IMG/VR virus record: IMGVR_UViG_2734482785_000012
Location: 1 to 19,162 of that record
Reading direction: 5' to 3' (one strand)
Source: a virus
Lineage: Duplodnaviria > Heunggongvirae > Uroviricota > Caudoviricetes
Length of the DNA stretch: 19,162 nt
Under the pieces are notes generated by a model, which saw only the letters and a list, made by a program, of their open reading frames with translations, was not told the DNA's origin and ran no database searches. Below, in pieces: positions 4,683 through 19,021 of this stretch; positions within the stretch are counted from its first letter, which is position 1; every line of letters begins with the position of its first letter. Made by a program: the position numbers and the translations under genes.

Positions 4683-4873
4683 GGACGCACCTCCGCCGTA
4701 GTTACGTATTTAACCGGGCTACCTTTCATTGAGATGGTTTCACACATCTCTGCCGCTTTGCGTTCCGCCGTTTTTCTGGATTTATAGCGGCGGTGCCAGA
4801 CAGATGTATCTGTGCGAACTGATACATCGTTTCTGTATTCCGTTGTGGAAATAATAATTTCGTAACTAATCAT
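4679..4873 (-). CDS. Hypothetical small protein (64 aa)
   Basis: ATG at 4873..4871 preceded by GGGAGG, with near-identical start context to the next gene (tcATGgacgcRcctcc). The track began at an upstream ATG at 4888 that lacks an SD. Confidence 0.4.
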   Translation of the reverse strand: MISYEIIISTTEYRNDVSVRTDTSVWHRRYKSRKTAERKAAEMCETISMKGSPVKYVTTAEVRP

Positions 4874-5232
4874 GGACGCGCCTCCCATTGATTACGGCGG
4901 AAAGCGGTATGACTGAGGCTGTTTTCTGCCTCATGGAATGCTTCAATGCAGCTCTCGTAGTACCGCATTGTGCGCAGACTTAACCCAAGCTGAAGCATCA
5001 TCAGGCCATCAAGGGTGATGTAATAACCACGCAGAGAATCACCATAGATGTGATAAGTGCACGGTATGAAATTGCGGGTAAAAAACTCGCGCGAGCAGTT
5101 CAGATACTCGATTTTGTCGACGATGTTCTGGTGCATGCGCTTAAAGTGGCAGGCAACATGCAGGGAGAAAATAACAGCTTTGCAGTTGACGACTTCGATT
5201 TTGAGGAATGGGGAAGTTGGGACTGTAGCCAT
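4870..5232 (-). CDS. Hypothetical protein (121 aa from the ATG at 5232; the same frame stays open to an ATG at 5532, giving 220 aa)
   Basis: ATG at 5232..5230 is preceded by GGAGG and the codon usage looks coding (TTC, ATC, AAC, GAA). The N-terminal extension 5233-5532 is GC-rich with rare codons, and its start lacks an SD, so the longer model is uncertain. Confidence 0.4.
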   Translation of the reverse strand: MATVPTSPFLKIEVVNCKAVIFSLHVACHFKRMHQNIVDKIEYLNCSREFFTRNFIPCTYHIYGDSLRGYYITLDGLMMLQLGLSLRTMRYYESCIEAFHEAENSLSHTAFRRNQWEARP

Positions 5233-5556
5233 GATGGCAGCCTCCGTATGCAATGGATAACTTCCACCACCGGAGGTTCCAAGCTCGCTGGTGGCGGACT
5301 GAACAGGGTTGGAACGACCGGCGCATACGGAAACCGGCGAGCCTTTCGGCTCCCCTGCCCAGCCCACCATAATTCTGGCGTGCGTGAGCGCGGACGATAA
5401 AAAAGACGCTGGCGCGTCGTATATCGCCGTATGCAATTCCGAGGTTCCAATCCCGGCACCCGCTTTATAAGGTGCGGAGACAGTGTAGCGTCCCGAAATT
5501 GCAGAATCAATATTTAGGCTTGAAACATTCATATGCTTACTGGTATTTTTACTAAC

Positions 5557-7406: not shown

Positions 7407-7525
7407 AATCGCATCTCCTATTGACGACATAATATCAATAGGTAATTCGATATTCAACGTTAAACCTAGAAGTTTCATCGGAAAGCCGATAAACTGCCCA
7501 ATATAGAGAGGAGAGGAAGATCACA
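7407..7525. promoter_or_regulatory. Divergent immunity-region promoter/operator (OR-like) between the cro-like and CI-like genes
   Basis: Palindrome cctattga-N10-tcaatagg at 7417-7442. Candidate minus-strand PR: -35 ttgaat (7457..7452), 17-bp spacer, -10 tattat (7434..7429), overlapped by the palindrome. Second palindrome atcgg-aaag-ccgat near 7477-7490. The motif AATAGGTAA recurs at the promoter at 8287-8315. Confidence 0.5.
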
Positions 7526-8218
7526 ATGACATTTTCAGAACGACTTGATTTAGCTATGCGCAACGCAAAATTTACGCAAGGCAGGCTAGCCAAAGAAGTA
7601 GGTATGGCCCAGTCAAGCGTCAATCAATTACTTAACAAAGCCAACGGCTCTAGGAAAACAGTTGAAATAGCAAAAGTTTTGGGCGTTAACCCGGAATGGC
7701 TCGCATCTGGTGTCGGCCCAATGGAAATCGAGACCTCTGCAGACTCACACCAAATACGTAACATTTCAGAAGACAGAGTTACTGATTCGTATGTCGTGGA
7801 TGTTTTAGACATCAGATACAGTTGCGGACCTGGTAGTTATAACTCTGATTTTCCAGACATTGTCAGATCTATAGCGATAGAACCAGGATACGCATCAAGA
7901 GTTTTTGGCGGCAGACCAGCATCAGCAATCAAAGCAATAAACGCCCACGGCGACAGCATGAAAGGCACAATAAACCCTGAGGACTTGGTGTTTGTTGACG
8001 TATCAGTTCGCTCATTTAATGGCGATGGTATATACGCTTTTACATACTCTGGAACATCGCACATCAAAAGGCTTCAAAAAATCAAAGATACCCTAACAGT
8101 GATCTCAGACAATCCAGCTTACAAAGATTGGGCTATCGAACAAGATGACTTCGAGCAACTTCACATTGACGGAAAAGTAATCGTAAGTTGGCCTATGACG
8201 CTACACCGTTTCGCATAA
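7526..8218 (+). CDS. cI: CI-like prophage repressor (N-terminal HTH, C-terminal LexA/S24 peptidase-like autocleavage domain)
   Basis: 230-aa ORF with SD gagaggagagg upstream. HTH segment QGRLAKEVGMAQSSVNQLLN. C-terminal Ser/Lys dyad motifs GDSM and KRL. Confidence 0.85.
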   Translation: MTFSERLDLAMRNAKFTQGRLAKEVGMAQSSVNQLLNKANGSRKTVEIAKVLGVNPEWLASGVGPMEIETSADSHQIRNISEDRVTDSYVVDVLDIRYSCGPGSYNSDFPDIVRSIAIEPGYASRVFGGRPASAIKAINAHGDSMKGTINPEDLVFVDVSVRSFNGDGIYAFTYSGTSHIKRLQKIKDTLTVISDNPAYKDWAIEQDDFEQLHIDGKVIVSWPMTLHRFA

Positions 8219-8240
8219 GCGATAATTATTTAACACCCCG

Positions 8241-8265
8241 CCCACTCCACGAGTGGGTTTTTTTT
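8241..8265 (+). terminator. Rho-independent terminator after the CI-like gene (possibly bidirectional)
   Basis: Stem cccactc / gagtggg with loop cac, followed by tttttttt (8258-8265) and flanked by an A-run on the other side (8266-8274). Confidence 0.65.
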
Positions 8266-8286: not shown

Positions 8287-8315
8287 TTGACACCACAAAT
8301 AGGTAAACCTATTAT
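8287..8315 (+). promoter_or_regulatory. Strong sigma70-type promoter with embedded palindromic operator (PL/OL-like)
   Basis: -35 TTGACA (8287-8292), 17-bp spacer, -10 TATTAT (8310-8315). The spacer and -10 contain the palindrome AATAGGT-AA-ACCTATT (8298-8313). Confidence 0.6.
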
Positions 8316-8364
8316 CATGACATAAGTATCGAACTCACCAAAACAATTATAGAGGATGAGGAAA

Positions 8365-8775
8365 ATGTCATCGTATATGGGGTTACCAACAAATCAACAC
8401 GATGTTCTTGAGAATATTCAACTCTTAGTAGGGGCTGGAGCACTACTGTATAGCAGCAATAACCCAGAGTTAGTTGAACTTGCCAGCTCCATCCTAGCTG
8501 TAACTCAAAAATATAGCCTCGCTGCGTCGCGTTCATGTAAACAAAATTTAGCTATTAATTCACGGAATCGGATTCGTATCCAACGCGAAGCCTGCGGCTT
8601 AACAACCGCCGAACTCGCCAGGCTGCTCGATCTCGATGAAGAAATCATCATCCAGTGGGAGAGCGGAGAGTATGAACCAACTATCAGTATGCTTATCCCG
8701 CTGGCAAATGTTCTTGGTTGCGACCCGATGTGGCTGTTAACCGGTAAACCAACAGCTGAGGATACTTGCGCATGA
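8365..8775 (+). CDS. Helix-turn-helix (XRE/Cro-C1-type) DNA-binding protein, first gene of the early-left transcript
   Basis: C-terminal HTH region GLTTAELARLLDLDEEIIIQWESGEYEPTISMLIPLANVLGCDPMWLLTG. ATG at 8365; the track started at 8356. Stop overlaps the next start (ATGA). Confidence 0.55.
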   Translation: MSSYMGLPTNQHDVLENIQLLVGAGALLYSSNNPELVELASSILAVTQKYSLAASRSCKQNLAINSRNRIRIQREACGLTTAELARLLDLDEEIIIQWESGEYEPTISMLIPLANVLGCDPMWLLTGKPTAEDTCA

Positions 8776-9524: not shown

Positions 9525-10102
9525 ATCATTCAGAGTTCCGACCAGTGGTTACGCCACATGGCATAAAAATTGGCAATACAACCATTGATTATGTTGAGGC
9601 CGTACAGCGGCTTAATAATGGTGAATACGATTATCCAAATTCTCACGGTTTAAGAATTATGCAATGTATTGCTGAAGCCGATGATGCCGGATTACTGGGA
9701 CGATTTTCAGTCGATATGAAGGTTGCTCAATGGCGATGGCTGTATGTGACAACATTTATAAATGAAGAGGAAGACAAGAACGGCACTGTTGATATCCCTA
9801 ACGATAATGGAACTACAGCTCGCGCAGTTATTTATAAAGGGAAATATGGTTGTATGGGTATCTACCCAGGATCAATTCGAATTGCCCTGCAAAACCATGT
9901 CGAACGGGGATTTATTGAAAAATATGGCGAAGCTGAAGGCATGGGGCGAGTTCTGTTTCTCTATCAAAAAATGCTCATCGTAGATCCAGGCAATGGCTTC
10001 ATTACCTCTACTATGGGACGCGAAGGACTTGAACTCCTTCTGGATGAAATGATTCACGATCTGAATACTCATGGTATGCCAGAAGCGCCAGTGACACATT
10101 AA
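9521..10102 (+). CDS. Hypothetical protein (193 aa), AT-rich accessory gene
   Basis: ATG at 9521 preceded by AAGGAG (8-nt spacing). The track's longer model starts at 9446. No motif recognised. Confidence 0.55.
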   Translation: MNHSEFRPVVTPHGIKIGNTTIDYVEAVQRLNNGEYDYPNSHGLRIMQCIAEADDAGLLGRFSVDMKVAQWRWLYVTTFINEEEDKNGTVDIPNDNGTTARAVIYKGKYGCMGIYPGSIRIALQNHVERGFIEKYGEAEGMGRVLFLYQKMLIVDPGNGFITSTMGREGLELLLDEMIHDLNTHGMPEAPVTH

Positions 10103-10109
10103 ATATTAA

Positions 10110-10134
10110 GAAGAATATAATTCTTCCGTTTTTT
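10110..10134 (+). terminator. Rho-independent terminator
   Basis: Stem gaagaat / attcttc with loop ata, followed by cgtttttt. Confidence 0.6.
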
Positions 10135-10147
10135 ACTAACCGTTTAT

Positions 10148-10255
10148 ATGAAAAGCAACCGTGAATTAAGCAGAGTAAAACTGCTTTTAATCCTTGCCAC
10201 AGTACTGACACTAACAGAAATCATTATTCTCTTTATTGCGCTGTCAGTCAGTTAA
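10148..10255 (+). CDS. Small hydrophobic peptide (35 aa, single predicted transmembrane helix)
   Basis: Translation MKSNRELSRVKLLLILATVLTLTEIIILFIALSVS. No clear SD, and shorter than the ORF-track cutoff. Confidence 0.3.
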   Translation: MKSNRELSRVKLLLILATVLTLTEIIILFIALSVS

Positions 10256-10278
10256 AAATATCGGGATGCAACAAACCA

Positions 10279-10467
10279 ATGAGATTGTATTTCAGAATAG
10301 TAATTTTACTGGCAATTATCGCATGCATTTACGGACTACTCGTCCCGTTCCTTATATCCATGAAGGATACGGTAGCAGTCATTTCCGGTTTTGCACTGGC
10401 GTTTCTGACCCCGCCCTGCATTTATGCCATTTACAAGGGTCTTTCTTTCACTAAGGATAAAAGATGA
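10279..10467 (+). CDS. Small membrane protein (62 aa, two predicted transmembrane helices)
   Basis: Hydrophobic segments IVILLAIIACIYGLLVPFLI and VAVISGFALAFL. Stop overlaps the start of the SPFH gene (ATGA). Confidence 0.4.
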   Translation: MRLYFRIVILLAIIACIYGLLVPFLISMKDTVAVISGFALAFLTPPCIYAIYKGLSFTKDKR

Positions 10468-11291
10468 AAAAAGTTATTTTTGCTTTAGCCATTGTTCTTC
10501 CGACCATTGGCCTTGTCGGTTGCGATCGCGTTGAACCAGGTAATGTTGGCATTAAGGTAAATAAACTGGGCGACGACAAAGGCGTCGGTGAAGTGGTTGG
10601 CGTTGGCCGCTACTGGACCGGCTGGAATACTGAAGTTTACATCTTCCCGACCTTCAAACAAATGAAGACCTACGATGAACCGTTCAGTTTCCAGATGAGT
10701 GACGGTACAACCATCGGCTATCACATCGGCGTGGCCTACAAGGTTGATCCATCCAAAGTTACCACGGTGTTTCAGACTTACCGCAAAGGCGTGGATGACA
10801 TAACCGATACCGACCTGCGTCAGAAGATCGCCGACGCACTCAACCGACTGGCCAGCAAAATGACCACCGACAAATTTATCGACGGCGGGAAGTCTGAACT
10901 ACTGGATGCAGCTCTTAAAGACATTCAGGAGGAAATGACCCCCATCGGTATTCAGGTAATGAGCCTCTCATATGTGGGTAAGCCGGAGTACCCGTCAACC
11001 GTTATCGACAGCATTAATGCCAAAGTCACGGCGAACCAGAAAACCCTGCAACGCGAACAGGAAGTAAAACAGCGCGAAGCGGAAGCCAACATGTTGCGCG
11101 CGGAAGCTGCCGGACAGGCAGATGCAATTCGCACAAAAGCCCAGGCCGAAGCCGATGCTATTCGTTTACGCGGTGAAGCTCTGCGCCAGAACCCCGGAGT
11201 TATGGAACTGGAAGCCATCAATAAATGGAACGGCATACTGCCGCAATACATGACCAGCGGTGCTAATACACCATTTATCCAGGTTAAATAA
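10464..11291 (+). CDS. SPFH/band-7 (prohibitin/stomatin-like) domain lipoprotein
   Basis: Signal peptide with lipobox LVGC (MKKVIFALAIVLPTIGLVGC). Central SPFH-like domain and a C-terminal Ala/Glu/Gln-rich coiled coil (QREQEVKQREAEANMLRAEAAGQADAIRTKAQAEADAIRLRGEA). SD AAGGA upstream. Confidence 0.75.
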   Translation: MKKVIFALAIVLPTIGLVGCDRVEPGNVGIKVNKLGDDKGVGEVVGVGRYWTGWNTEVYIFPTFKQMKTYDEPFSFQMSDGTTIGYHIGVAYKVDPSKVTTVFQTYRKGVDDITDTDLRQKIADALNRLASKMTTDKFIDGGKSELLDAALKDIQEEMTPIGIQVMSLSYVGKPEYPSTVIDSINAKVTANQKTLQREQEVKQREAEANMLRAEAAGQADAIRTKAQAEADAIRLRGEALRQNPGVMELEAINKWNGILPQYMTSGANTPFIQVK

Positions 11292-11331
11292 CTTATACGC
11301 CCGGCAGGGCGCCGGGCTAAGGAAAGAACAG

Positions 11332-11703
11332 ATGAACACCCAGAATACTCAACAGCAAATAATGAACTATGACCCAAATCTGACGTCGTGCGGACGCATG
11401 GCAAAACAAACCGTTCGATTAACTTTCGGACTATGGGAATACCGCGAAACATTCGAAGTTACTGTCGGTGGCAATCTGACCGGACTGGATGTTATCAGTT
11501 GCGCTATTGAAAGCCTGTACGCAACGCTGCCTTATGAAGAAGTCGAGGATGAGCGCACAGGGGAAACAGATATCATGGCCACCATTAATATTGGCGAACT
11601 GATATGTCAGGATGAAGACCTGTCTGGAGAACTCTGGCTTGCCGGGATGCTTATCTCAGCAGAAATTATCAGTATTGAACCCGCTACAAACATACGGCTC
11701 TGA
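11332..11703 (+). CDS. Hypothetical protein (123 aa)
   Basis: ATG at 11332 preceded by aaggaaag. The track's longer model starts at 11260. Preceded by the GC stem-loop gcccggc-agggc-gccgggc (11299-11317). Confidence 0.5.
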   Translation: MNTQNTQQQIMNYDPNLTSCGRMAKQTVRLTFGLWEYRETFEVTVGGNLTGLDVISCAIESLYATLPYEEVEDERTGETDIMATINIGELICQDEDLSGELWLAGMLISAEIISIEPATNIRL

Positions 11704-12135: not shown

Positions 12136-12345
12136 GTGGGGCTGGATTGCGTACCTATATCAACCTACTGCCGCAACGCGGGAGAAACGGTTGATGCCGT
12201 TAACAAACGGATACAAAGAGGAATATGGAAAGAAGGGGTACATGTATTAAAAGTCGACGGGGTTAAAGAACGTTGGGTCGACTTAATGGAGATTACAAAA
12301 TGGGCAAGAAAGAACAAGGATCATTATCTCTCCCCAGAGGAGTAA
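12136..12345 (+). CDS. xis: Excisionase-like DNA-binding protein (Xis position)
   Basis: 69-aa ORF with GTG start preceded by GAGGTG. Winged-helix-like pattern (ETVDAVNKRIQRGIW...VKERWVDLMEITKW). 3' end overlaps the integrase start by 46 nt, as in xis-int pairs. Confidence 0.55.
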   Translation: MGLDCVPISTYCRNAGETVDAVNKRIQRGIWKEGVHVLKVDGVKERWVDLMEITKWARKNKDHYLSPEE

Positions 12346-13472
12346 CTATTCGGCAACATAAAACTGGTAGCACTCTGGTTATCACTTTTACATATAAAGG
12401 GGTTCTGTGTCGGGAGCCCCTCTCCAGAATGGAAGTAAACGCGCGCGGTGTGAAGTACGCCGAGCGTCTGCTGGGAGAAATAAAAAATCAGATTATCGAT
12501 GGTACCTTCGAATATGCAAAATACTTCCCCAACTCCCAAAAGCTGAAGTTGTTCGGGGGAGTGAAAAAAAACAAAAATATAAAATCTTACCTGGATGAAT
12601 ACCTGATTATCTGCCAGAACCGTAACCTGTCACCATCGACAATTAGAGGTTATGAAAAATGCCTGTCGGCGCTGTCAGCATTGCATAAATTTCATGTATC
12701 AGAACTGACACCTGCAGTACTAAAAAACTGGATCGCCAGCAGAAAAACAAAACTGAAAACGATCCGCAATAATCTTTCGTTTCTGCGCAGCGCCATAGAT
12801 GAGGCGGTGACCGATGGTTTGTTAACAATAAATCCTGTCACGCTAGTCAGCGCCAGCCGATATCACGTATTAGACAACACACCAGGCAGTGATGATTACG
12901 AGGTCGATCCTTTTACGCCAGCGGAGACAGCAGCAATCTATGACGCCTGTCATTACCCGGAATGGCGAAATCTATTTCGCTTCGCCTTTAATACCGGGCT
13001 GCGCAGCTCGGAATTGTGCGCATTGCGCTGGACAGATATAGACTTCATCGGCAACACAGCGCATGTCCAGACTGCAAGTGTAGTCGGGGTAATCAAAAGC
13101 ACCAAAACAAAAGCCGGCACTCGCAAAGTACAACTGAACAGCGAAGCGCTGGCAGCTCTTCAGGCACAAAAGCCCTACACGGCGCTAAAAAGCGACTTTA
13201 TATTCAGCGATCCAAAAACTCGCGCCCCTTGGGCAAACGCGGACGCGATCCGAAAAAAAGCCTGGGTGCCGACCCTTAAAAAGGCTGGTGTACGCTATCG
13301 CAATCCGTACCAGACACGCCATACGTTCGCCACTCGGCACATTAGCCAGGGCGTTAACCTGTTCTGGCTTGCTGGTCAGATGGGGCATAAAGGACCGGAA
13401 ATGCTGTTCAGACATTACGGCTCTTACCTTGCAGAATACGATGGAAAAACGGCGATTTCTGCAGCCCCGTAA
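12300..13472 (+). CDS. int: Prophage tyrosine integrase (site-specific recombinase)
   Basis: Catalytic-domain motifs (TGLRSSELCALRW; HTFATRHISQGVNLFWLAGQMGHKGPEMLFRHYGSY with the R..H-x-x-R..Y signature). ATG at 12300; the track used an upstream TTG at 12273. Lies next to the attachment core. Confidence 0.85.
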   Translation: MGKKEQGSLSLPRGVTIRQHKTGSTLVITFTYKGVLCREPLSRMEVNARGVKYAERLLGEIKNQIIDGTFEYAKYFPNSQKLKLFGGVKKNKNIKSYLDEYLIICQNRNLSPSTIRGYEKCLSALSALHKFHVSELTPAVLKNWIASRKTKLKTIRNNLSFLRSAIDEAVTDGLLTINPVTLVSASRYHVLDNTPGSDDYEVDPFTPAETAAIYDACHYPEWRNLFRFAFNTGLRSSELCALRWTDIDFIGNTAHVQTASVVGVIKSTKTKAGTRKVQLNSEALAALQAQKPYTALKSDFIFSDPKTRAPWANADAIRKKAWVPTLKKAGVRYRNPYQTRHTFATRHISQGVNLFWLAGQMGHKGPEMLFRHYGSYLAEYDGKTAISAAP

Positions 13473-13631: not shown

Positions 13632-13796
13632 CTTTTTAGTTGTTTGAAGTTCAATGAAGTCTACTAAGCCCACACAGCACAAGCTCTGCGGGCTTTTTTA
13701 CGTCTATTGTCGTCCAGTGAGAATTGCTGAGAACTACGAGTTATGGCACCCTGAATGGGACCCACTAAGAAGGGTCCAAAAACCGAGGGTCCCAAA

Positions 13797-15026
13797 ATGG
13801 CAAAAATCGCTAAGAAGCTCACTGACACTGAAATCAAAAGCACCAAGCCAGCCGATAAAGAAATCAACTTGTTTGACGGTGATGGTCTGATTCTACGAAT
13901 CGCTCCTTTGGCGAAAGGAGGCAAGAAAAATTGGTATTTCAGGTATGCAGTACCAGTGAGCAAGAAAAGAACCAAAATGAGCCTTGGGACATATCCTCAC
14001 CTTACCCTTGCAAGAGCCAGAGCCTTACGTGATGAATATCTCTCCTTTCTGGCAAATGGTGTTGATCCCCAAATCCATAACAACGATAAGGCGAAGGCAT
14101 TAAAGAGTGCTACTGAGCACACTCTCCAAGCCGTAGCGCGGAAATGGTTAGATGAGAAGGTAAAGACATCAGGTATCTCACAAGACCATGCAGCAGACAT
14201 CTGGCGCAGCTTAGAGAGAAATGTCTTTCCCGGTCTGGGTAATGTCCCTATCAATGAGATCCGACCTAAGCTCTTAAAACAACACCTTGATCCTATTGAG
14301 CAACGAGGCGTATTGGAAACTCTACGCCGTATCATTTCACGTCTGAATGAAATCTTCCGGTGGGCAGCTACTGAAGAACTTATTGAGTTCAACCCGGCTG
14401 ACAACCTTGGTCAAAGATTCAGTAAACCAAAAAAGCAAAATATGCCTGCCCTTCCCCCAAGCGAATTGCCAAGGTTTATGGAATCTTTGACGAATGCGTC
14501 AATCCGGTTGGAAACACGTATGCTAATTGAATGGCAATTGTTGACATGGGTTCGTCCGGGTGAAGCCGTTCGCGCAAGGTGGTCTGATATTGATACAACC
14601 AACAGCATTTGGAACATTCCTGCTGATTTCATGAAAATGAAAAAGCTTCACAAAGTTCCTTTGAGTAAAGAAGCTTTGCGCATCCTTGAATTAATGAAAT
14701 CAATAAGTGGGCATAGAGAATGGGTTTTCCCCAGCATAAAAGCGCCTCTTAATCATATGCATGAACAAACAGCCAACGCAGCTATCATCCGAATGGGGTT
14801 CGGAGGCGAGCTTGTAGCTCACGGTATGCGTTCTATTGCACGAACAGCGGCAGAGGAGTCTGGTAAATTCAGAGCTGAAGTTCTTGAGGCAGCGCTTGCC
14901 CACTCGAAAAAAGATGAAATTATCGCAGCATACAATCGTGCAGAATATCTGATAGAGCGACAGAGTTTGATGCAATGGTGGAGTGATTACGTTCAAGCTC
15001 AAAGATCAAATGCTCTGGTAGCCTAA
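13797..15026 (+). CDS. P4-type (IntA/CP4-57-like) tyrosine integrase
   Basis: N-terminus MAKIAKKLTDTEIKSTKPADKEINLFDGDGLILRIAP is typical of P4-family integrases. Catalytic region has R (VRPGEAVRARW), HGMRS and Y (AAYNRAEY). ATG at 13797; the track's longer model starts at 13755. Lies directly downstream of the tmRNA 3'-end core. Confidence 0.85.
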   Translation: MAKIAKKLTDTEIKSTKPADKEINLFDGDGLILRIAPLAKGGKKNWYFRYAVPVSKKRTKMSLGTYPHLTLARARALRDEYLSFLANGVDPQIHNNDKAKALKSATEHTLQAVARKWLDEKVKTSGISQDHAADIWRSLERNVFPGLGNVPINEIRPKLLKQHLDPIEQRGVLETLRRIISRLNEIFRWAATEELIEFNPADNLGQRFSKPKKQNMPALPPSELPRFMESLTNASIRLETRMLIEWQLLTWVRPGEAVRARWSDIDTTNSIWNIPADFMKMKKLHKVPLSKEALRILELMKSISGHREWVFPSIKAPLNHMHEQTANAAIIRMGFGGELVAHGMRSIARTAAEESGKFRAEVLEAALAHSKKDEIIAAYNRAEYLIERQSLMQWWSDYVQAQRSNALVA

Positions 15027-15064
15027 GTATCAGAATAGCTAATATAATCCTGAAGGTAAAGAAA

Positions 15065-15481
15065 ATGGAAACCCTATTCAAAGTTTTTGAAAAATTTAGT
15101 TCCAGACCACTTTTTTTTATTTTTTTCGGACTCTCACTTTGTGAATTTTTTCAGAAACAATCTGTTCTGATGAATCCATCAGCAGATAACATCGCGAAAT
15201 TATTCGCAGCCATGATATTAGTTGTTTTTTTTACTTGGGGATTTGAATGGCTAATCTTCAAGTTCAATGTAAACCTTGAACCTCATGATCAAGGCGATAT
15301 TGGACCAACAATTGGAACGGCTACTTTAGCTGTATACTTAGTTTATGCCTTTCACTTTCTCAGTGAAAATCCTGAAGCATTAAATTTAAAGTTATTAACT
15401 AACTCTGGCTTTATATACAGCACAACTCTATTATTATTCTCATTAGAATGCATGAAGCTTAGAAGACTTAAACAAAAATAA
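15065..15481 (+). CDS. Hypothetical integral membrane protein (138 aa, 3-4 predicted transmembrane helices)
   Basis: AT-rich. Hydrophobic segments PLFFIFFGLSL, LFAAMILVVFFTWGFEWLIF, TIGTATLAVYLVYAFHFL, FIYSTTLLLFSL. Convergent with the receiver-domain gene. Confidence 0.5.
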   Translation: METLFKVFEKFSSRPLFFIFFGLSLCEFFQKQSVLMNPSADNIAKLFAAMILVVFFTWGFEWLIFKFNVNLEPHDQGDIGPTIGTATLAVYLVYAFHFLSENPEALNLKLLTNSGFIYSTTLLLFSLECMKLRRLKQK

Positions 15482-15552
15482 ACAACATCATTGTGATGAT
15501 AAATATAAAATAGGCATGGCGAAAAAAAATCACCACGCCTAAAATATAATAA

Positions 15553-17301
15553 TTATGGTAGCATCATTGATACATAATCCACACCAATCCTTGAGCTATA
15601 CTGAGACGCTATAGCCTGATATCTTTCTGCATAACCAGTTCTCAGTTGAGATTTAAGTTTGAGTCGGACAGGAACATTTTGCACGTTGCCATCCATATTA
15701 CTTAAAAACACGGCAGAAATAATATTTTTTTCTTCGCCATCAACTGTTGTTCCATGATTCAACACCACCATATAATCAACAACAGGAAGCGTTTTATCCC
15801 CTTCGAAAATAGAGAGATATTTTCTTTGATTTTTATGCATTACATATATATATTTCGAATGTTCAGCAAATGGCAATGCTTTACTCTGACTGGCGTTAAA
15901 AAGCTCCAGAACTTTAATGAGCCTGTGCGGACTTAATCTTACATGGTGAGGGTCGTTACCCTGAGTAGGAACCAAATCACATGCCGCAGATACACATAAA
16001 TACCATTTGTTCGACTCTGTATCAAAGAAAATAGTGCCAGTAGAAATATGACCATCTTCAAAATTCTTTGAAGACAAATTCATATTTAAAGCATGATACA
16101 TTTCGTGATAAGTATCATTATTTGATGGCAGATCCATTTTTGAAGAGCAATATTGGAGCAATGCAGCAACTCCGCTGTTAGCGTATTCATTTGAATAGCT
16201 ATCAAAAACACTTTTGATAAATTCATCCAGCGTATTATTATTTTTAAGTCTTTGATAAAGCTCTTCTGATAAATTACCAAATACAAAGTCAATATTTCTA
16301 CATCTAATATCAGGCGAGTCTGATTTTAATATCTCATTTAACCACGCAGCTTGACCGTAATGATCGTTAGCCAAATGATTTACAAAAGATAAAGCCTCAG
16401 CTTCGATTGCATTCTGAATTTCAGATTTTATTAACTGATAATAAGATGGTTTCCATTCAATGAGAGAATCATTGAGAGTTTGCCAAATCCTATCTCCATC
16501 GTTTTCATGATCATCTTGAACCTTATGAAATAGGGAGACAAAGATATTACCACATTGAATCCATTTTACTCCGCTTTCATCACCCCGAATGACATTGCCA
16601 GATGTGTTGCTAGAAATAATTGCATTTCTAGACACAGCATATTCTGCAATCATTTTTGCAATGAAGTTTTTATCCTTTTGATCCTCCAACACAGCATCAT
16701 CATGTATTAATCTTTTAATTCTTCTACAAGGCTTACTGTCTTTAATATAGGCTATTGTTTCATCTCTTGTGAGAGCTTTATTACCATTATCATTTAAGTT
16801 CGGTAATACAACGTCTTCCCAATAACTTTGGACATCTTCATTATCGTAGTCAATGATCAAGCTGTTGATATCCAGAGCACCTTTGAGAGTCGATGATATC
16901 TGCATCCAAACCGTTTCTAAATTCTCTCTAGTATATATTACAATCATATTTAAATGATCGGAGTCTTTCAAATCTTGTAATAGTTTAAGTGTTTTATCAG
17001 GTGCATTATTATCAAGATGATAATCTACAATAATAAGATCTGATTTTCTAATCCGATCCACATCGAAATTAACAGAACCATTGTCAACATCACAAATCAT
17101 ATTTTTAGATTGAAAAAAGCTCTCAAGAGTAGCGGCTCGTTTAGATGAGTCAATTTTGTTGTAGTCTAAATCAACTTCGTTATTCAACGCCCTGATTGAT
17201 TCAGAATACGTCAGAAAATCGTCATCAATCATGACAACGGAACGAATTGCATTTTCGCAGAAAGTTTTCTGGACAAGAGAATTATAATTTGCCACTGTCA
17301 T
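15553..17301 (-). CDS. Receiver (REC) domain protein with large C-terminal domain of unknown function (about 430 aa)
   Basis: N-terminal REC signature in the correct order and spacing: VVMIDDD (acidic pocket), LIIVDYHL (phospho-acceptor Asp), MIVIYT (conserved Thr), TLKG (Lys). ATG at 17301..17299 preceded by GGAG, 1 nt after the kinase-like gene stop (TAA-T-ATG); the track's model starts at 17319. About 30% GC. Confidence 0.7.
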   Translation of the reverse strand: MTVANYNSLVQKTFCENAIRSVVMIDDDFLTYSESIRALNNEVDLDYNKIDSSKRAATLESFFQSKNMICDVDNGSVNFDVDRIRKSDLIIVDYHLDNNAPDKTLKLLQDLKDSDHLNMIVIYTRENLETVWMQISSTLKGALDINSLIIDYDNEDVQSYWEDVVLPNLNDNGNKALTRDETIAYIKDSKPCRRIKRLIHDDAVLEDQKDKNFIAKMIAEYAVSRNAIISSNTSGNVIRGDESGVKWIQCGNIFVSLFHKVQDDHENDGDRIWQTLNDSLIEWKPSYYQLIKSEIQNAIEAEALSFVNHLANDHYGQAAWLNEILKSDSPDIRCRNIDFVFGNLSEELYQRLKNNNTLDEFIKSVFDSYSNEYANSGVAALLQYCSSKMDLPSNNDTYHEMYHALNMNLSSKNFEDGHISTGTIFFDTESNKWYLCVSAACDLVPTQGNDPHHVRLSPHRLIKVLELFNASQSKALPFAEHSKYIYVMHKNQRKYLSIFEGDKTLPVVDYMVVLNHGTTVDGEEKNIISAVFLSNMDGNVQNVPVRLKLKSQLRTGYAERYQAIASQYSSRIGVDYVSMMLP

Positions 17302-17302
17302 A

Positions 17303-19021
17303 TTAGAACTCCACTCCATTGAACTGGATCACAAAATTAGCGCCATCTTTTATTAAATAGTTATCGCCTTCATCAGGTTCTGAATACCATATTTTATGAT
17401 GTGCAACAGCAAGGTTTTCTCGACATAGATACAGACCTACCCCATGTCCATTTGCTCTTTTGCTATAAAATAGTTCAAATAGTCGCGGGATATCATCGGT
17501 ATCAATTGCCGGACCAGAATTTGCTATGATAACCAAAGAATTCACAAAACCAATCTTTATGAGCCTATTATTTGACAGACTGACCCAATACATTGCATTG
17601 TTGATAATATTAGTAAAAACAGGATAGATCCTTGATGGTATATCTGTTATTGCGATTTGCTTAAACTCTTCACTAAATTCAATAGTTATTCGTTGCCGTT
17701 CGAAACGCTCCCCAAAGAACTTCAGGACATAATCCATGATATTTTTTCCAGTTATTCTCTGCCTGGATTGATAACCTGATATTTTCAAAGGTGATAAGAA
17801 ACGTATTTGTTGAGTAAGCGATCTGTGAGCATTTAACGCCAATGAAAAACCAGGGTGTTCTTTTACAGAAGTAGGAAGAGAGTTTAGTCCTCTGGTTACC
17901 ATAGAATCCATTTCTTCAAGTTCATGAGATATTATCTCAACACTAATACCTAACTGTGCAAGCGCGTTTAAACTTTTAGCTTTTTCTTCAAAATATGAGC
18001 GTTCTTCTTCAGATAATGAGAATGCTGAATCTAAGTTTATACCTTCAAATAATCTATCGAGACCTTTTATTATTGATTGATATTTGAAAGTTAGGGTATC
18101 AACTGACTCAACATATAAACTATCGAGCAAATTAAACACATTTTCAATTTGTGAATCATTATCTATTGAATCAACAACTGATATAGTTTTAGCATAATAA
18201 TCACTTCGATCAACCTTTATTTCATCGGCCCATTTTTTTAAAAGAGAATGTATCTTCTCCTCTATCGTGTTATTAAACTTAGTTAGTTTAGAATTAATAA
18301 TACCTTGATTTTTTTCAAGGTGATTTTTCGCTGACAATGAAGGCTCAAGTTTATTTAATTCAGAATCAAGTTTATTAATTGCTAACTTCATTTGTAGAAT
18401 ATACGCAGAGAACTCATTAAATTTATCTCTGTAGTCTCTATATTTCTCTTCATACATTCCAAGTTTTGGAGGTTTGATAGGCGTTTTAATTTCACTGCGC
18501 AACGCATCTAAGTTTGTAAGATCACTGTCTATAATTTTAAGATAGTTTAAATCTAACGAACCATCAGTTTTATCAAGCTTAGTTTTCAGCCTTTTAACAG
18601 CCTCCAAGGAAGCATCAAGAACTGGTGTCTGATTCTTCAAAGCTTCTGAAAAACTTTTTTGTGTTGATTTTCGAGCTTGTTGTTGAGCAGATTTTCTTAA
18701 CTCTTTTTCACGCTTAACTTGTTCTAAAAGCTCTTTACGGTCATCAGAACGTGAACCAAAAAATCTATCAGCAAGTTCAGTTAACAAATTAGATATAATA
18801 GTTTTCAGTTCTCTTGCAGCCTGGTTTCTTATGAATCCCTCTCTCCCCGACTTATCTTTCAGCTCTTTATTACTGGATTGAGTAATTCCAATATAACCAA
18901 AAATCCTTCTATTAGACCAATAATATCGCCCTGCATTCCATGAACGTCTTTCTTCTATCTGGAAGAAATCATTATCTACTCGACCATAAGGTAATACTCT
19001 CAAGCTATCCCTAAAAATCAT
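17303..19021 (-). CDS. Cytoplasmic histidine-kinase-like protein (HisKA H-box plus GHKL/HATPase_c core) with coiled-coil-rich N-terminal region; reading frame open upstream to 19147
   Basis: H-box ISHELEEMDSM, N-box FTNIINNAMYW, G1 ANSGPAIDTDD, G2 GHGVGLYLC. No hydrophobic transmembrane segments. The frame continues without a stop or start codon from 19021 up to 19147 (…FDLKAKKYAGL before the Met), so the annotated Met may be internal. Confidence 0.7.
   Translation of the reverse strand: MIFRDSLRVLPYGRVDNDFFQIEERRSWNAGRYYWSNRRIFGYIGITQSSNKELKDKSGREGFIRNQAARELKTIISNLLTELADRFFGSRSDDRKELLEQVKREKELRKSAQQQARKSTQKSFSEALKNQTPVLDASLEAVKRLKTKLDKTDGSLDLNYLKIIDSDLTNLDALRSEIKTPIKPPKLGMYEEKYRDYRDKFNEFSAYILQMKLAINKLDSELNKLEPSLSAKNHLEKNQGIINSKLTKFNNTIEEKIHSLLKKWADEIKVDRSDYYAKTISVVDSIDNDSQIENVFNLLDSLYVESVDTLTFKYQSIIKGLDRLFEGINLDSAFSLSEEERSYFEEKAKSLNALAQLGISVEIISHELEEMDSMVTRGLNSLPTSVKEHPGFSLALNAHRSLTQQIRFLSPLKISGYQSRQRITGKNIMDYVLKFFGERFERQRITIEFSEEFKQIAITDIPSRIYPVFTNIINNAMYWVSLSNNRLIKIGFVNSLVIIANSGPAIDTDDIPRLFELFYSKRANGHGVGLYLCRENLAVAHHKIWYSEPDEGDNYLIKDGANFVIQFNGVEF

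Follow-up and report, generated by a model that had tools for sequence, protein, structure and literature searches.

The stretch of DNA analyzed here (hereafter the window: 19,162 nucleotides (nt) of the IMG/VR virus record IMGVR_UViG_2734482785_000012) is a phiP27-like lambdoid E. coli prophage, with 97.8% identity to the prophage of strain WAT and 94.5% to phage phiP27. Between its LexA-type repressor gene (7526-8218) and its integrase gene (12273-13472) lie three consecutive open reading frames (ORFs), which an earlier sequence-only reading had taken for a module of two small membrane peptides coupled to an SPFH lipoprotein. The second and third of these, encoding a protein of 62 amino acids (aa) and the lipoprotein, are a genuine conserved pair which is at times fused into a single chain, whereas the 35-aa peptide encoded by the first was found to be missing in most contexts. 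The features of the locus are as follows.

10148..10255, + strand: 35-aa hydrophobic ORF from the ORF list, of doubtful coding status and outside the conserved module.
10279..10467, + strand: gene of the predicted 62-aa two-helix (hairpin) inner-membrane partner (ORF, hydropathy, phrog_1130).
10464..11291, + strand: gene of the 275-aa SPFH (prohibitin/HflK/C-like) lipoprotein (ORF, Band_7, phrog_200, AlphaFold2, Foldseek).
10464..10523, + strand: signal peptide and lipobox L-V-G-C of the SPFH protein (sequence).
10995..11189, + strand: long single helix, SPFH residues 178-242 (DSSP on the AlphaFold2 model).

The three ORFs, the ATGA overlap and the LVGC lipobox were all located where the sequence-only reading had placed them, and a hydropathy scan likewise returned a single hydrophobic segment for the 35-aa peptide and two for the 62-aa protein. 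The stop codon TGA of the 62-aa ORF (10465-10467) shares the ATGA with the start codon ATG of the SPFH gene (10464-10466). Since the Shine-Dalgarno sequence of the SPFH gene (AAGGA, 10453-10457) also lies within the 62-aa ORF, translation of the SPFH protein is probably coupled to that of the upstream ORF.

The N-terminus of the SPFH protein, MKKVIFALAIVLPTIGLVGC-DR, consists of MKK, a hydrophobic stretch and the lipobox LVGC, which agrees with the pattern [LVI][ASTVI][GAS]C. The cysteine, Cys20 (codon 10521-10523), is invariant across the SPFH family alignment and is followed by an aspartate at position +2 (10524-10526). A lipobox-like motif was present in 108 of the 150 best cluster representatives. 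According to the sorting rule of E. coli, Asp at +2 retains a lipoprotein in the inner membrane, and we infer from the sequence that the protein is lipidated at Cys20 and held there. One SPFH subgroup (IMG/VR loci L113-L123) has an N-terminal hydrophobic anchor instead of the lipobox cysteine; a two-helix partner gene is still found directly upstream.

That the lipoprotein belongs to the SPFH proteins was borne out both by family searches and by its predicted fold. Pfam Band_7 (PF01145) matched residues 22-208 over model positions 2-176 of 176 (1.8e-30, 106.8 bits for a cut-off of 23.6), and phrog_200, a family annotated just as 'lipoprotein', matched at 6e-113. The AlphaFold2 model of the monomer, built on an alignment of 18 sequences 63-95% identical to the query that stayed shallow since two further large protein searches brought in mainly the relatives already known, has a mean predicted local distance difference test score (pLDDT) of 78 and shows an N-terminal helix, an alpha/beta domain (20-175), a single 65-residue helix (178-242) and a poorly defined C-terminus. 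The long helix, as modelled, may represent a coiled-coil wall element such as those of SPFH cages. Searching the PDB with Foldseek gave, at probability 1.0, HflC/HflK (7vhq), prohibitin (8rrh), erlin, stomatin, flotillin, QmcA-YbbJ (8z5g) and major vault protein, and the SPFH cage subunits among these matches align to the model over nearly its full length. In agreement, a profile of ten phage homologues searched against PDB sequences retrieved prohibitin (2.5e-10) and HflC (2.7e-07), as well as erlin, HflK and QmcA. The sequence-only reading thus withstands its own check, an SPFH fold in structure prediction. The long helix is followed by a C-terminal KWNGxLP motif (residues 254-260), in which K254, W255, G257 and P260 are invariant in the family alignment.

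Several more specific identities were considered and rejected. The protein is neither an HflK nor an HflC orthologue, as its scores with the NCBIfam equivalogs were about 24 bits for cut-offs of at least 134 (TIGR01932, 24.4 vs 134.4 bits; TIGR01933, 23.7 vs 159.4 bits). HflK and HflC are moreover two paralogous SPFH subunits with N-terminal transmembrane anchors, and the window holds a single SPFH gene with a lipobox signal peptide. The 'serine protease' label given in records of Stx-converting phages (LC567818-LC567842, AJ298298) was discarded because no protease domain is detectable; it probably descends from the old name 'membrane protease subunit, stomatin/prohibitin homologue'. A two-component spanin does not fit a 275-aa SPFH protein with Asp at +2 encoded between repressor and integrase genes rather than in a lysis cassette. 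When the three proteins of the locus and five neighbours were searched against PADLOC-DB 2.0 (E up to 0.1), no defence match was obtained besides a generic helix-turn-helix (HTH) match for the product of 8356-8775.

The 62-aa protein matches phrog_1130 ('membrane protein', PHROG category 'moron/host takeover') at 7.9e-24. It is predicted to adopt an N-in/C-in topology with a short periplasmic loop carrying a conserved P23..S27 motif, and P23, S27, V34 and G37 are invariant in the partner family alignment, down to 19% identity. Twenty-four close DNA variants of the 62-aa ORF contain no internal stop. Their variable sites number 15, 11 and 25 at the first, second and third codon positions; 29 of the changes are synonymous and 34 nonsynonymous. 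This lack of stops and the bias of the variation towards third codon positions indicate a coding sequence under moderate constraint.

The association of the two genes extends across lineages. Using a hidden Markov model (HMM) of the partner family, a member was found immediately upstream of the SPFH gene in all 80 IMG/VR loci that the SPFH profile had retrieved; in the set widened with relatives of two Pseudomonas phage proteins, this held for 173 of 197 loci. When SPFH domains were clustered at 80%, the partner was adjacent in 16 of the 24 clusters and within 1 kb in 3 more; inspection by eye revealed that several of the loci missed by the HMM hold an obvious hairpin of the same kind, such as MNATQIALVVFILLANYLVLVPALLSTS.... 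The two genes overlap by 4 nt in 103 loci. The pair occurs in four unrelated E. coli backbones, namely lambdoid and P2-like prophages, P1-like phage-plasmids of about 97 kb and phage-plasmids of about 110 kb which are taken to be SSU5-like. In each of them the upstream ORF encodes 62-78 aa with two hydrophobic helices and a common motif (LYGLLVPxLIS, LYVGVLPRMISS and similar), although it is unannotated in the P1-like record. Serratia phage Spe5P4 and Pseudomonas phage Hali also have a partner family member directly before the SPFH gene; in a Klebsiella phage of 143 kb the two are separated by one gene.

The comparison with NfeD-SPFH operons suggested by the sequence-only reading held for the architecture, since a small membrane protein gene, adjacent and in the same orientation, is seen across lineages. 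It did not extend to homology: the 62-aa protein has no Pfam NfeD match at E up to 0.1 and is too short for an OB domain, and hhalign of the partner family profile with E. coli YbbJ gave a probability of only 10.9%. The partner is thus not regarded as an NfeD homologue, and NfeD is kept as an analogy.

Additional evidence for a joint function came from gene fusions. By HMM, a hairpin domain was found within the SPFH protein in 15 of the 150 best cluster representatives (14 N-terminal, one C-terminal), and alignment raised the N-terminal hairpin-SPFH fusions to about 19 of 150. The order along the chain is hairpin, basic linker, hydrophobic stretch, invariant lipobox cysteine and SPFH domain. 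In the alignment of the fused proteins (P0167-P0307 and P0002), these are 33-48% identical to its first sequence, P0186, and the linkers vary in length, the longest having about 45 residues. Two independent samples contained P0002, a P1-like fusion whose model displays, at low confidence, three N-terminal helices ahead of the SPFH domain. The basic linker fits with an N-in/C-in hairpin followed by a periplasmic SPFH domain and, as classically argued from gene fusions, the fused proteins suggest that both products work together in the same membrane. Because the invariant lipobox cysteine is retained after the third hydrophobic stretch, it may be speculated that the fused precursor is still lipid-modified and cut by signal peptidase II, which would free both parts in equal amounts. 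Taken together with the adjacency across lineages and the pattern of variation, the fusions support the 62-aa protein as the partner of the lipoprotein.

Scanning the genome collection with the fused protein P0186 yielded one weak locus, and scanning viral contigs with fused proteins yielded six loci, two with a separate partner and four with none detected. In P0175 the hairpin domain follows the SPFH domain at the C-terminus, as though the genes had been read through in reverse order, which may reflect a true permuted fusion or a lost stop codon. In a P1-like contig with a fused module (L199), the next called gene (4729-5304) has a Tad2-like (Thoeris anti-defence) Pfam match.

The SPFH family is widespread. 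At E up to 1e-30, 223 clusters emerged from an exhaustive search of 1.84 billion cluster representatives, and 959 when the threshold was relaxed to 1e-10. Tblastn located the SPFH gene in 701 phage records, with matches including Staphylococcus Kayvirus (MbpS), Pseudomonas Bruynoghevirus, Caulobacter, Erwinia, Klebsiella and Burkholderia phages and haloarchaeal tailed viruses. Among 5426 complete E. coli genomes, 737 (about 14%) carry DNA resembling the SPFH gene, at sites roughly half chromosomal and half plasmid-borne. In P2-like prophages the module starts 11 nt after the preceding gene and probably belongs to the early operon, with Pe as the presumed promoter. P1-like plasmids carry it within the C1-controlled ban operon (which has a documented C1 operator), flanked by trnT and trnI. 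This slot is occupied in P1 itself by tciABC, annotated 'tellurite or colicin resistance', and in some P1-like plasmids the SPFH pair replaces plp-upl-tciABC. P1 plp, considered as a possible SPFH gene, was rejected, as it encodes a 125-aa lipoprotein on the opposite strand. In virulent phages the module is found among small early genes.

The two genes of the pair differ in their divergence among the four backbones. The mature SPFH part of the window is 92% identical to the P2-like, 91% to the P1-like and 80% to the SSU5-like copies, and the corresponding values for the partner are 19%, 27% and 34%. DNA similarity to these three copies begins at nt 46-55 of the SPFH gene (window 10509-10523), just 5' of the lipobox cysteine codon. 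The G+C content is 0.51-0.56 for the SPFH gene versus about 0.39-0.41 for the partner gene. These data suggest that the mature SPFH part has been exchanged or homogenised among co-resident phages, apart from the partner and the signal peptide, and that the partner lineages are old. If such homogenisation took place, hairpin and SPFH protein must contact each other through a small number of residues or through helix packing of a general kind.

The genomic setting of the module was analyzed with promoter and terminator scans, and all promoter, terminator and timing calls below depend on matches to consensus sequences.

8240-8258, + strand: strong terminator after the repressor gene (scan).
8287-8315, + strand: strong promoter TTGACA-17-TATTAT with the palindrome ATAGGTAAACCTAT in its spacer (scan).
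10091..10134, + strand: weak hairpin GAAGAAT-ATA-ATTCTTC followed by a T run, after the upstream gene (RNA fold, -4.9 kcal/mol).
10091-10121, + strand: possible promoter GTGACA, 19 nt, TATAAT, overlapping the weak hairpin (consensus matches only).
11299..11317, + strand: GC-rich hairpin with a 7-bp stem and a 5-nt loop, no U tract (sequence and fold).

The order on the + strand is repressor gene, terminator, promoter, an HTH gene matching the PHROG 'CII-like regulator' (8356-8775), several small genes and the module, the CII-like gene and the module being in the same operon; DUF5406, DUF4222, an excisionase-like ORF and the integrase gene follow. Half-sites of the palindrome ATAGGTAAACCTAT are repeated at 7408-7451, near the start of the repressor gene, as an inverted pair by the divergent repressor/cro-like promoters. 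The palindrome and these sites are likely to be operators of the phage's own repressor, and 8287-8315 is a probable repressor-controlled early-left promoter reading towards the module. The module's place matches that of an early-left operon of the lambda type, and it would be under repressor control. A scan of 9900-11500 against Rfam (E up to 1) gave no match. The hairpin at 11299-11317, a perfect 7-bp stem directly 3' of the SPFH stop codon, may stabilise the mRNA or direct its processing (fold of 11288-11330, -17.1 kcal/mol); it is situated just 5' of the Shine-Dalgarno sequence of the DUF5406 gene.

The 35-aa peptide, which the sequence-only reading had counted as part of the module, is not retained as such. 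Its ORF, located in a 176-nt AT-rich spacer along with the weak hairpin and the possible promoter, lacks a Shine-Dalgarno sequence and a family match in Pfam or PHROG. It was found in 25 of 207 fetched loci, all close relatives and always with an intact frame. The segment containing it (query 10103-10466, covered over at least 80%) occurs in 133 of the 243 E. coli genomes having the 62-aa gene, and in the remaining ones homology begins at about window position 10288. Changes in the ORF comprise 12 nonsynonymous and 6 synonymous ones, with variable sites at 7:4:7 over the three codon positions and no third-position bias. Its coding status is therefore doubtful. Two promoter-like sites are present on the opposite strand (10251-10220, - strand) within the 3' end of the ORF, an arrangement recalling that of type I toxins and their antisense RNAs.

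Beyond the prophage integrase, a second tyrosine integrase gene (Phage_int_M, Arm-DNA-bind_3) starts after 280 nt (window 13755-19021) and is followed on the - strand by an overlapping pair encoding a 588-aa Response_reg_2 protein (PF19192, 3.7e-31) and a 572-aa HEF_HK/HATPase_c kinase-like protein. This region has no PADLOC match and the window contains no tRNA gene; 13755-19021 looks like a tandem integrative island with an unusual two-component-like pair.

How could the two proteins work together? Direct support for the pair comes from the SPFH sequence and predicted fold, the lipobox, the conserved adjacency and the fusions. We consider it about an even chance that hairpin and lipoprotein are the two subunits of a phage-encoded membrane scaffold, in which an early-expressed hairpin accompanies a periplasmic, lipid-anchored SPFH cage. 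The 62-aa protein would insert in the inner membrane as an N-in/C-in helical hairpin, and the SPFH protein would be exported, acquire a lipid on Cys20 and remain at the periplasmic face of that membrane. Both would then co-assemble at a ratio of about 1:1 into a large ring or cage resembling HflK/C, prohibitin or QmcA-YbbJ. The lipid-anchored SPFH subunits might form the ring or dome, and the hairpins would serve as the membrane-spanning fence, missing from these subunits, around the enclosed patch. Being encoded in an early-left operon, past a promoter bearing an operator-like palindrome, both proteins would probably be made early after infection or induction.

The sequence-only reading had suggested that the module may act in superinfection exclusion or envelope remodelling. 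A cage of this kind may fence or stabilise patches of inner membrane, so that the infected cell would resist further membrane insult. T4 Imm and Sp, P22 SieA and HK97 gp15 are small inner-membrane or periplasmic phage exclusion proteins acting at the inner membrane; they are functional analogues only, with no relation in sequence or fold expected and none being an SPFH protein. The leading case would be a block of genome entry by superinfecting phages, analogous to that of T4 Imm/Sp. Inner-membrane protection, including superinfection exclusion, is the least certain step and is put forward tentatively, as a possibility rather than an expectation. It was ranked first, ahead of FtsH modulation, because of the probably early expression, the membrane concerned, which incoming genomes have to cross, the P1 slot shared with genes of the colicin/tellurite-resistance type and the 'moron/host takeover' category of the partner.

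A number of observations weigh against this interpretation of assembly and role. Cage formation is argued by analogy with solved SPFH assemblies. In Staphylococcus (MbpS) and Caulobacter phages, the SPFH gene is preceded by genes of small membrane proteins of other kinds, and at the distant loci L202-L205 no partner was detected. With SPFH parts 91-92% alike and partners 19-27% alike, a specific contact between them must rest on very few residues. In the window, in P1-like and probably in P2-like elements the genes belong to repressor-controlled early operons and are not obvious lysogen-expressed morons, which weakens a classical lysogen-immunity reading and is compatible with exclusion during lytic growth. 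Hali-type Pseudomonas prophages have no terminator-like site between repressor gene and module, and expression in the lysogen appears possible there from the sequence. As the SPFH family is also present in virulent phages and in viruses of Gram-positive bacteria and archaea, its function seems to be general rather than directed at invaders. The exclusion role found no match in PADLOC, and literature searches turned up no experimental or functional study of a phage SPFH protein. The role is called unknown by the authors of PMC13239085 and PMC7760394, the former speculating about adsorption or entry.

Among the other explanations, the best surviving one, which we nevertheless regard as rather improbable, is that the phage protein mimics HflK/C, with a cage that would enclose or titrate host FtsH and alter the turnover of CII-like, Xis or membrane proteins, as a membrane counterpart of lambda CIII. 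The periplasmic domain of FtsH sits inside the HflK/C cage, and lambda CIII is also encoded early-left. The closest solved relatives of the phage protein include HflK and HflC complexed with FtsH; the protein has weak NCBIfam matches to both, is predicted on the same side of the membrane, and shares its operon with the 'CII-like regulator' (8356-8775), with xis and int nearby. A link of the HflK/C type to the lysis-lysogeny decision has also been proposed for the SPFH protein of a Pseudomonas satellite prophage (PMC4936722). However, the equivalog scores of 24 bits are far from cut-offs of 134-660, one SPFH gene stands in place of the K/C pair and a lipid anchor in place of the transmembrane helix. 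The family is, in addition, frequent among virulent phages as well as P2-like and P1-like elements, which make no use of CII, and it extends to haloarchaeal viruses, whose hosts are not known to have FtsH.

A scaffold for membrane events of the phage itself, such as the timing of holin lysis or the Sec-dependent export of envelope enzymes, seems unlikely. It was suggested by Kayvirus, in which mbpS and the small holin-like mbpV lie between the endolysin and transglycosylase genes, and MbpV/MbpS have been proposed to aid the Sec-dependent export of Tgl, flotillin-type scaffolds being known to support secretion complexes (PMC7150955). MbpV, however, is not detectably related to the 62-aa family, and the pair is found among early or lysogeny genes, far from lysis cassettes, in the window and in P2-, P1- and SSU5-like, Serratia, Klebsiella and Pseudomonas elements.

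Still less probable is a lysogenic-conversion lipoprotein, which would be made in the lysogen, released in vesicles and directed at the animal host, either as a virulence factor or as an agonist of TLR2, rather than at phages. The model for this is PM0222 of a Pasteurella multocida prophage, an HflK/C-like protein made in culture and present in outer-membrane vesicles, which signals via TLR1/2 and whose deletion attenuates virulence (PMC9872710); the possible local promoter at 10091-10121 could provide expression in the lysogen. Kinship of PM0222 with the phage family is putative, however, and both Asp at +2 and the inner-membrane partner or fusion favour retention in the inner membrane. TLR2 activation is a generic property of lipoproteins, and an effect on an animal host would make no sense in the virulent phages of environmental bacteria and archaea in which the family is common.

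Finally, that the small ORFs are not functional partners, the 62-aa ORF being a coupling leader only or its adjacency mere hitch-hiking, is hardly credible: the partner does evolve much faster than the SPFH protein (19-34% vs 80-92% identity) and some distant SPFH homologues have none, but invariant residues survive across 19-35% identity, the same kind of hairpin is kept in four unrelated backbones and several host genera, in-frame fusions with evolved linkers arose independently several times and the 62-aa ORF varies as a coding sequence.

Compared with solved assemblies, the two-subunit scaffold proposed for the phage pair has close but imperfect relatives. In PMC13086221, which cites Tan et al. 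2024, QmcA-YbbJ is described as a cage of 26 SPFH-partner heterodimers protruding into the cytoplasm. QmcA (YbbK)-YbbJ (8z5g) resembles the phage pair in having small membrane protein and SPFH genes side by side and in its SPFH fold (Foldseek rank 37). The phage partner differs in having two helices only, no NfeD/OB domain and no detectable homology to YbbJ, and the module is phage-borne. Its SPFH protein bears a lipid anchor and is predicted on the periplasmic side, in contrast to the cytoplasmic QmcA cage. HflK/HflC-FtsH (7vhp/7vhq/7wi3), historically linked to phage lysogeny, is among the best structural matches and forms a periplasm-facing inner-membrane cage, a location predicted for the phage protein; the differences lie in the single SPFH gene, the lipobox replacing a transmembrane helix and the family cut-offs that the phage protein failed. 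Prohibitins PHB1/PHB2 (8rrh, 9o9z, 9urz), the best profile matches among solved structures (2.5e-10), share a size of about 270 aa and the layout of anchor, SPFH domain, long helix and C-terminal cap, but they form hetero-oligomers in eukaryotic mitochondria, are anchored by a transmembrane segment and lack a small hairpin partner. Among phages, Kayvirus MbpV-MbpS is alike in its SPFH protein (24-25% identical) and in the small membrane protein gene immediately upstream. It differs by the apparent N-terminal transmembrane anchor of MbpS, by the single helix and long charged tail of MbpV and by its location next to lysis genes.

SPFH proteins (prohibitins, stomatins, flotillins, HflK/C) are universal; their cages were solved recently and their function is debated. 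The copy in the window is in no way exceptional within a very common phage family, labelled 'SPFH domain-containing protein' and 'hypothetical protein' in databases. In the papers accessible, our literature search met no description of a non-NfeD hairpin partner, of fusions or of the lipid-anchored topology predicted on the periplasmic side. Comprising two genes, the pair is compact, can be cloned and can be assayed directly for effects on exclusion, FtsH control or membrane protection, and would offer a minimal system for the assembly of an SPFH cage on the periplasmic side of the inner membrane. That many phage lineages use such a cage to commandeer the inner membrane of their hosts, either as a generic exclusion or protection device or by capture of FtsH, is a conjecture we hold with considerable reserve. 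If it is true, a viral SPFH protein would for the first time have a defined biological role, and the workings of SPFH cages could be studied in a genetically simple system.

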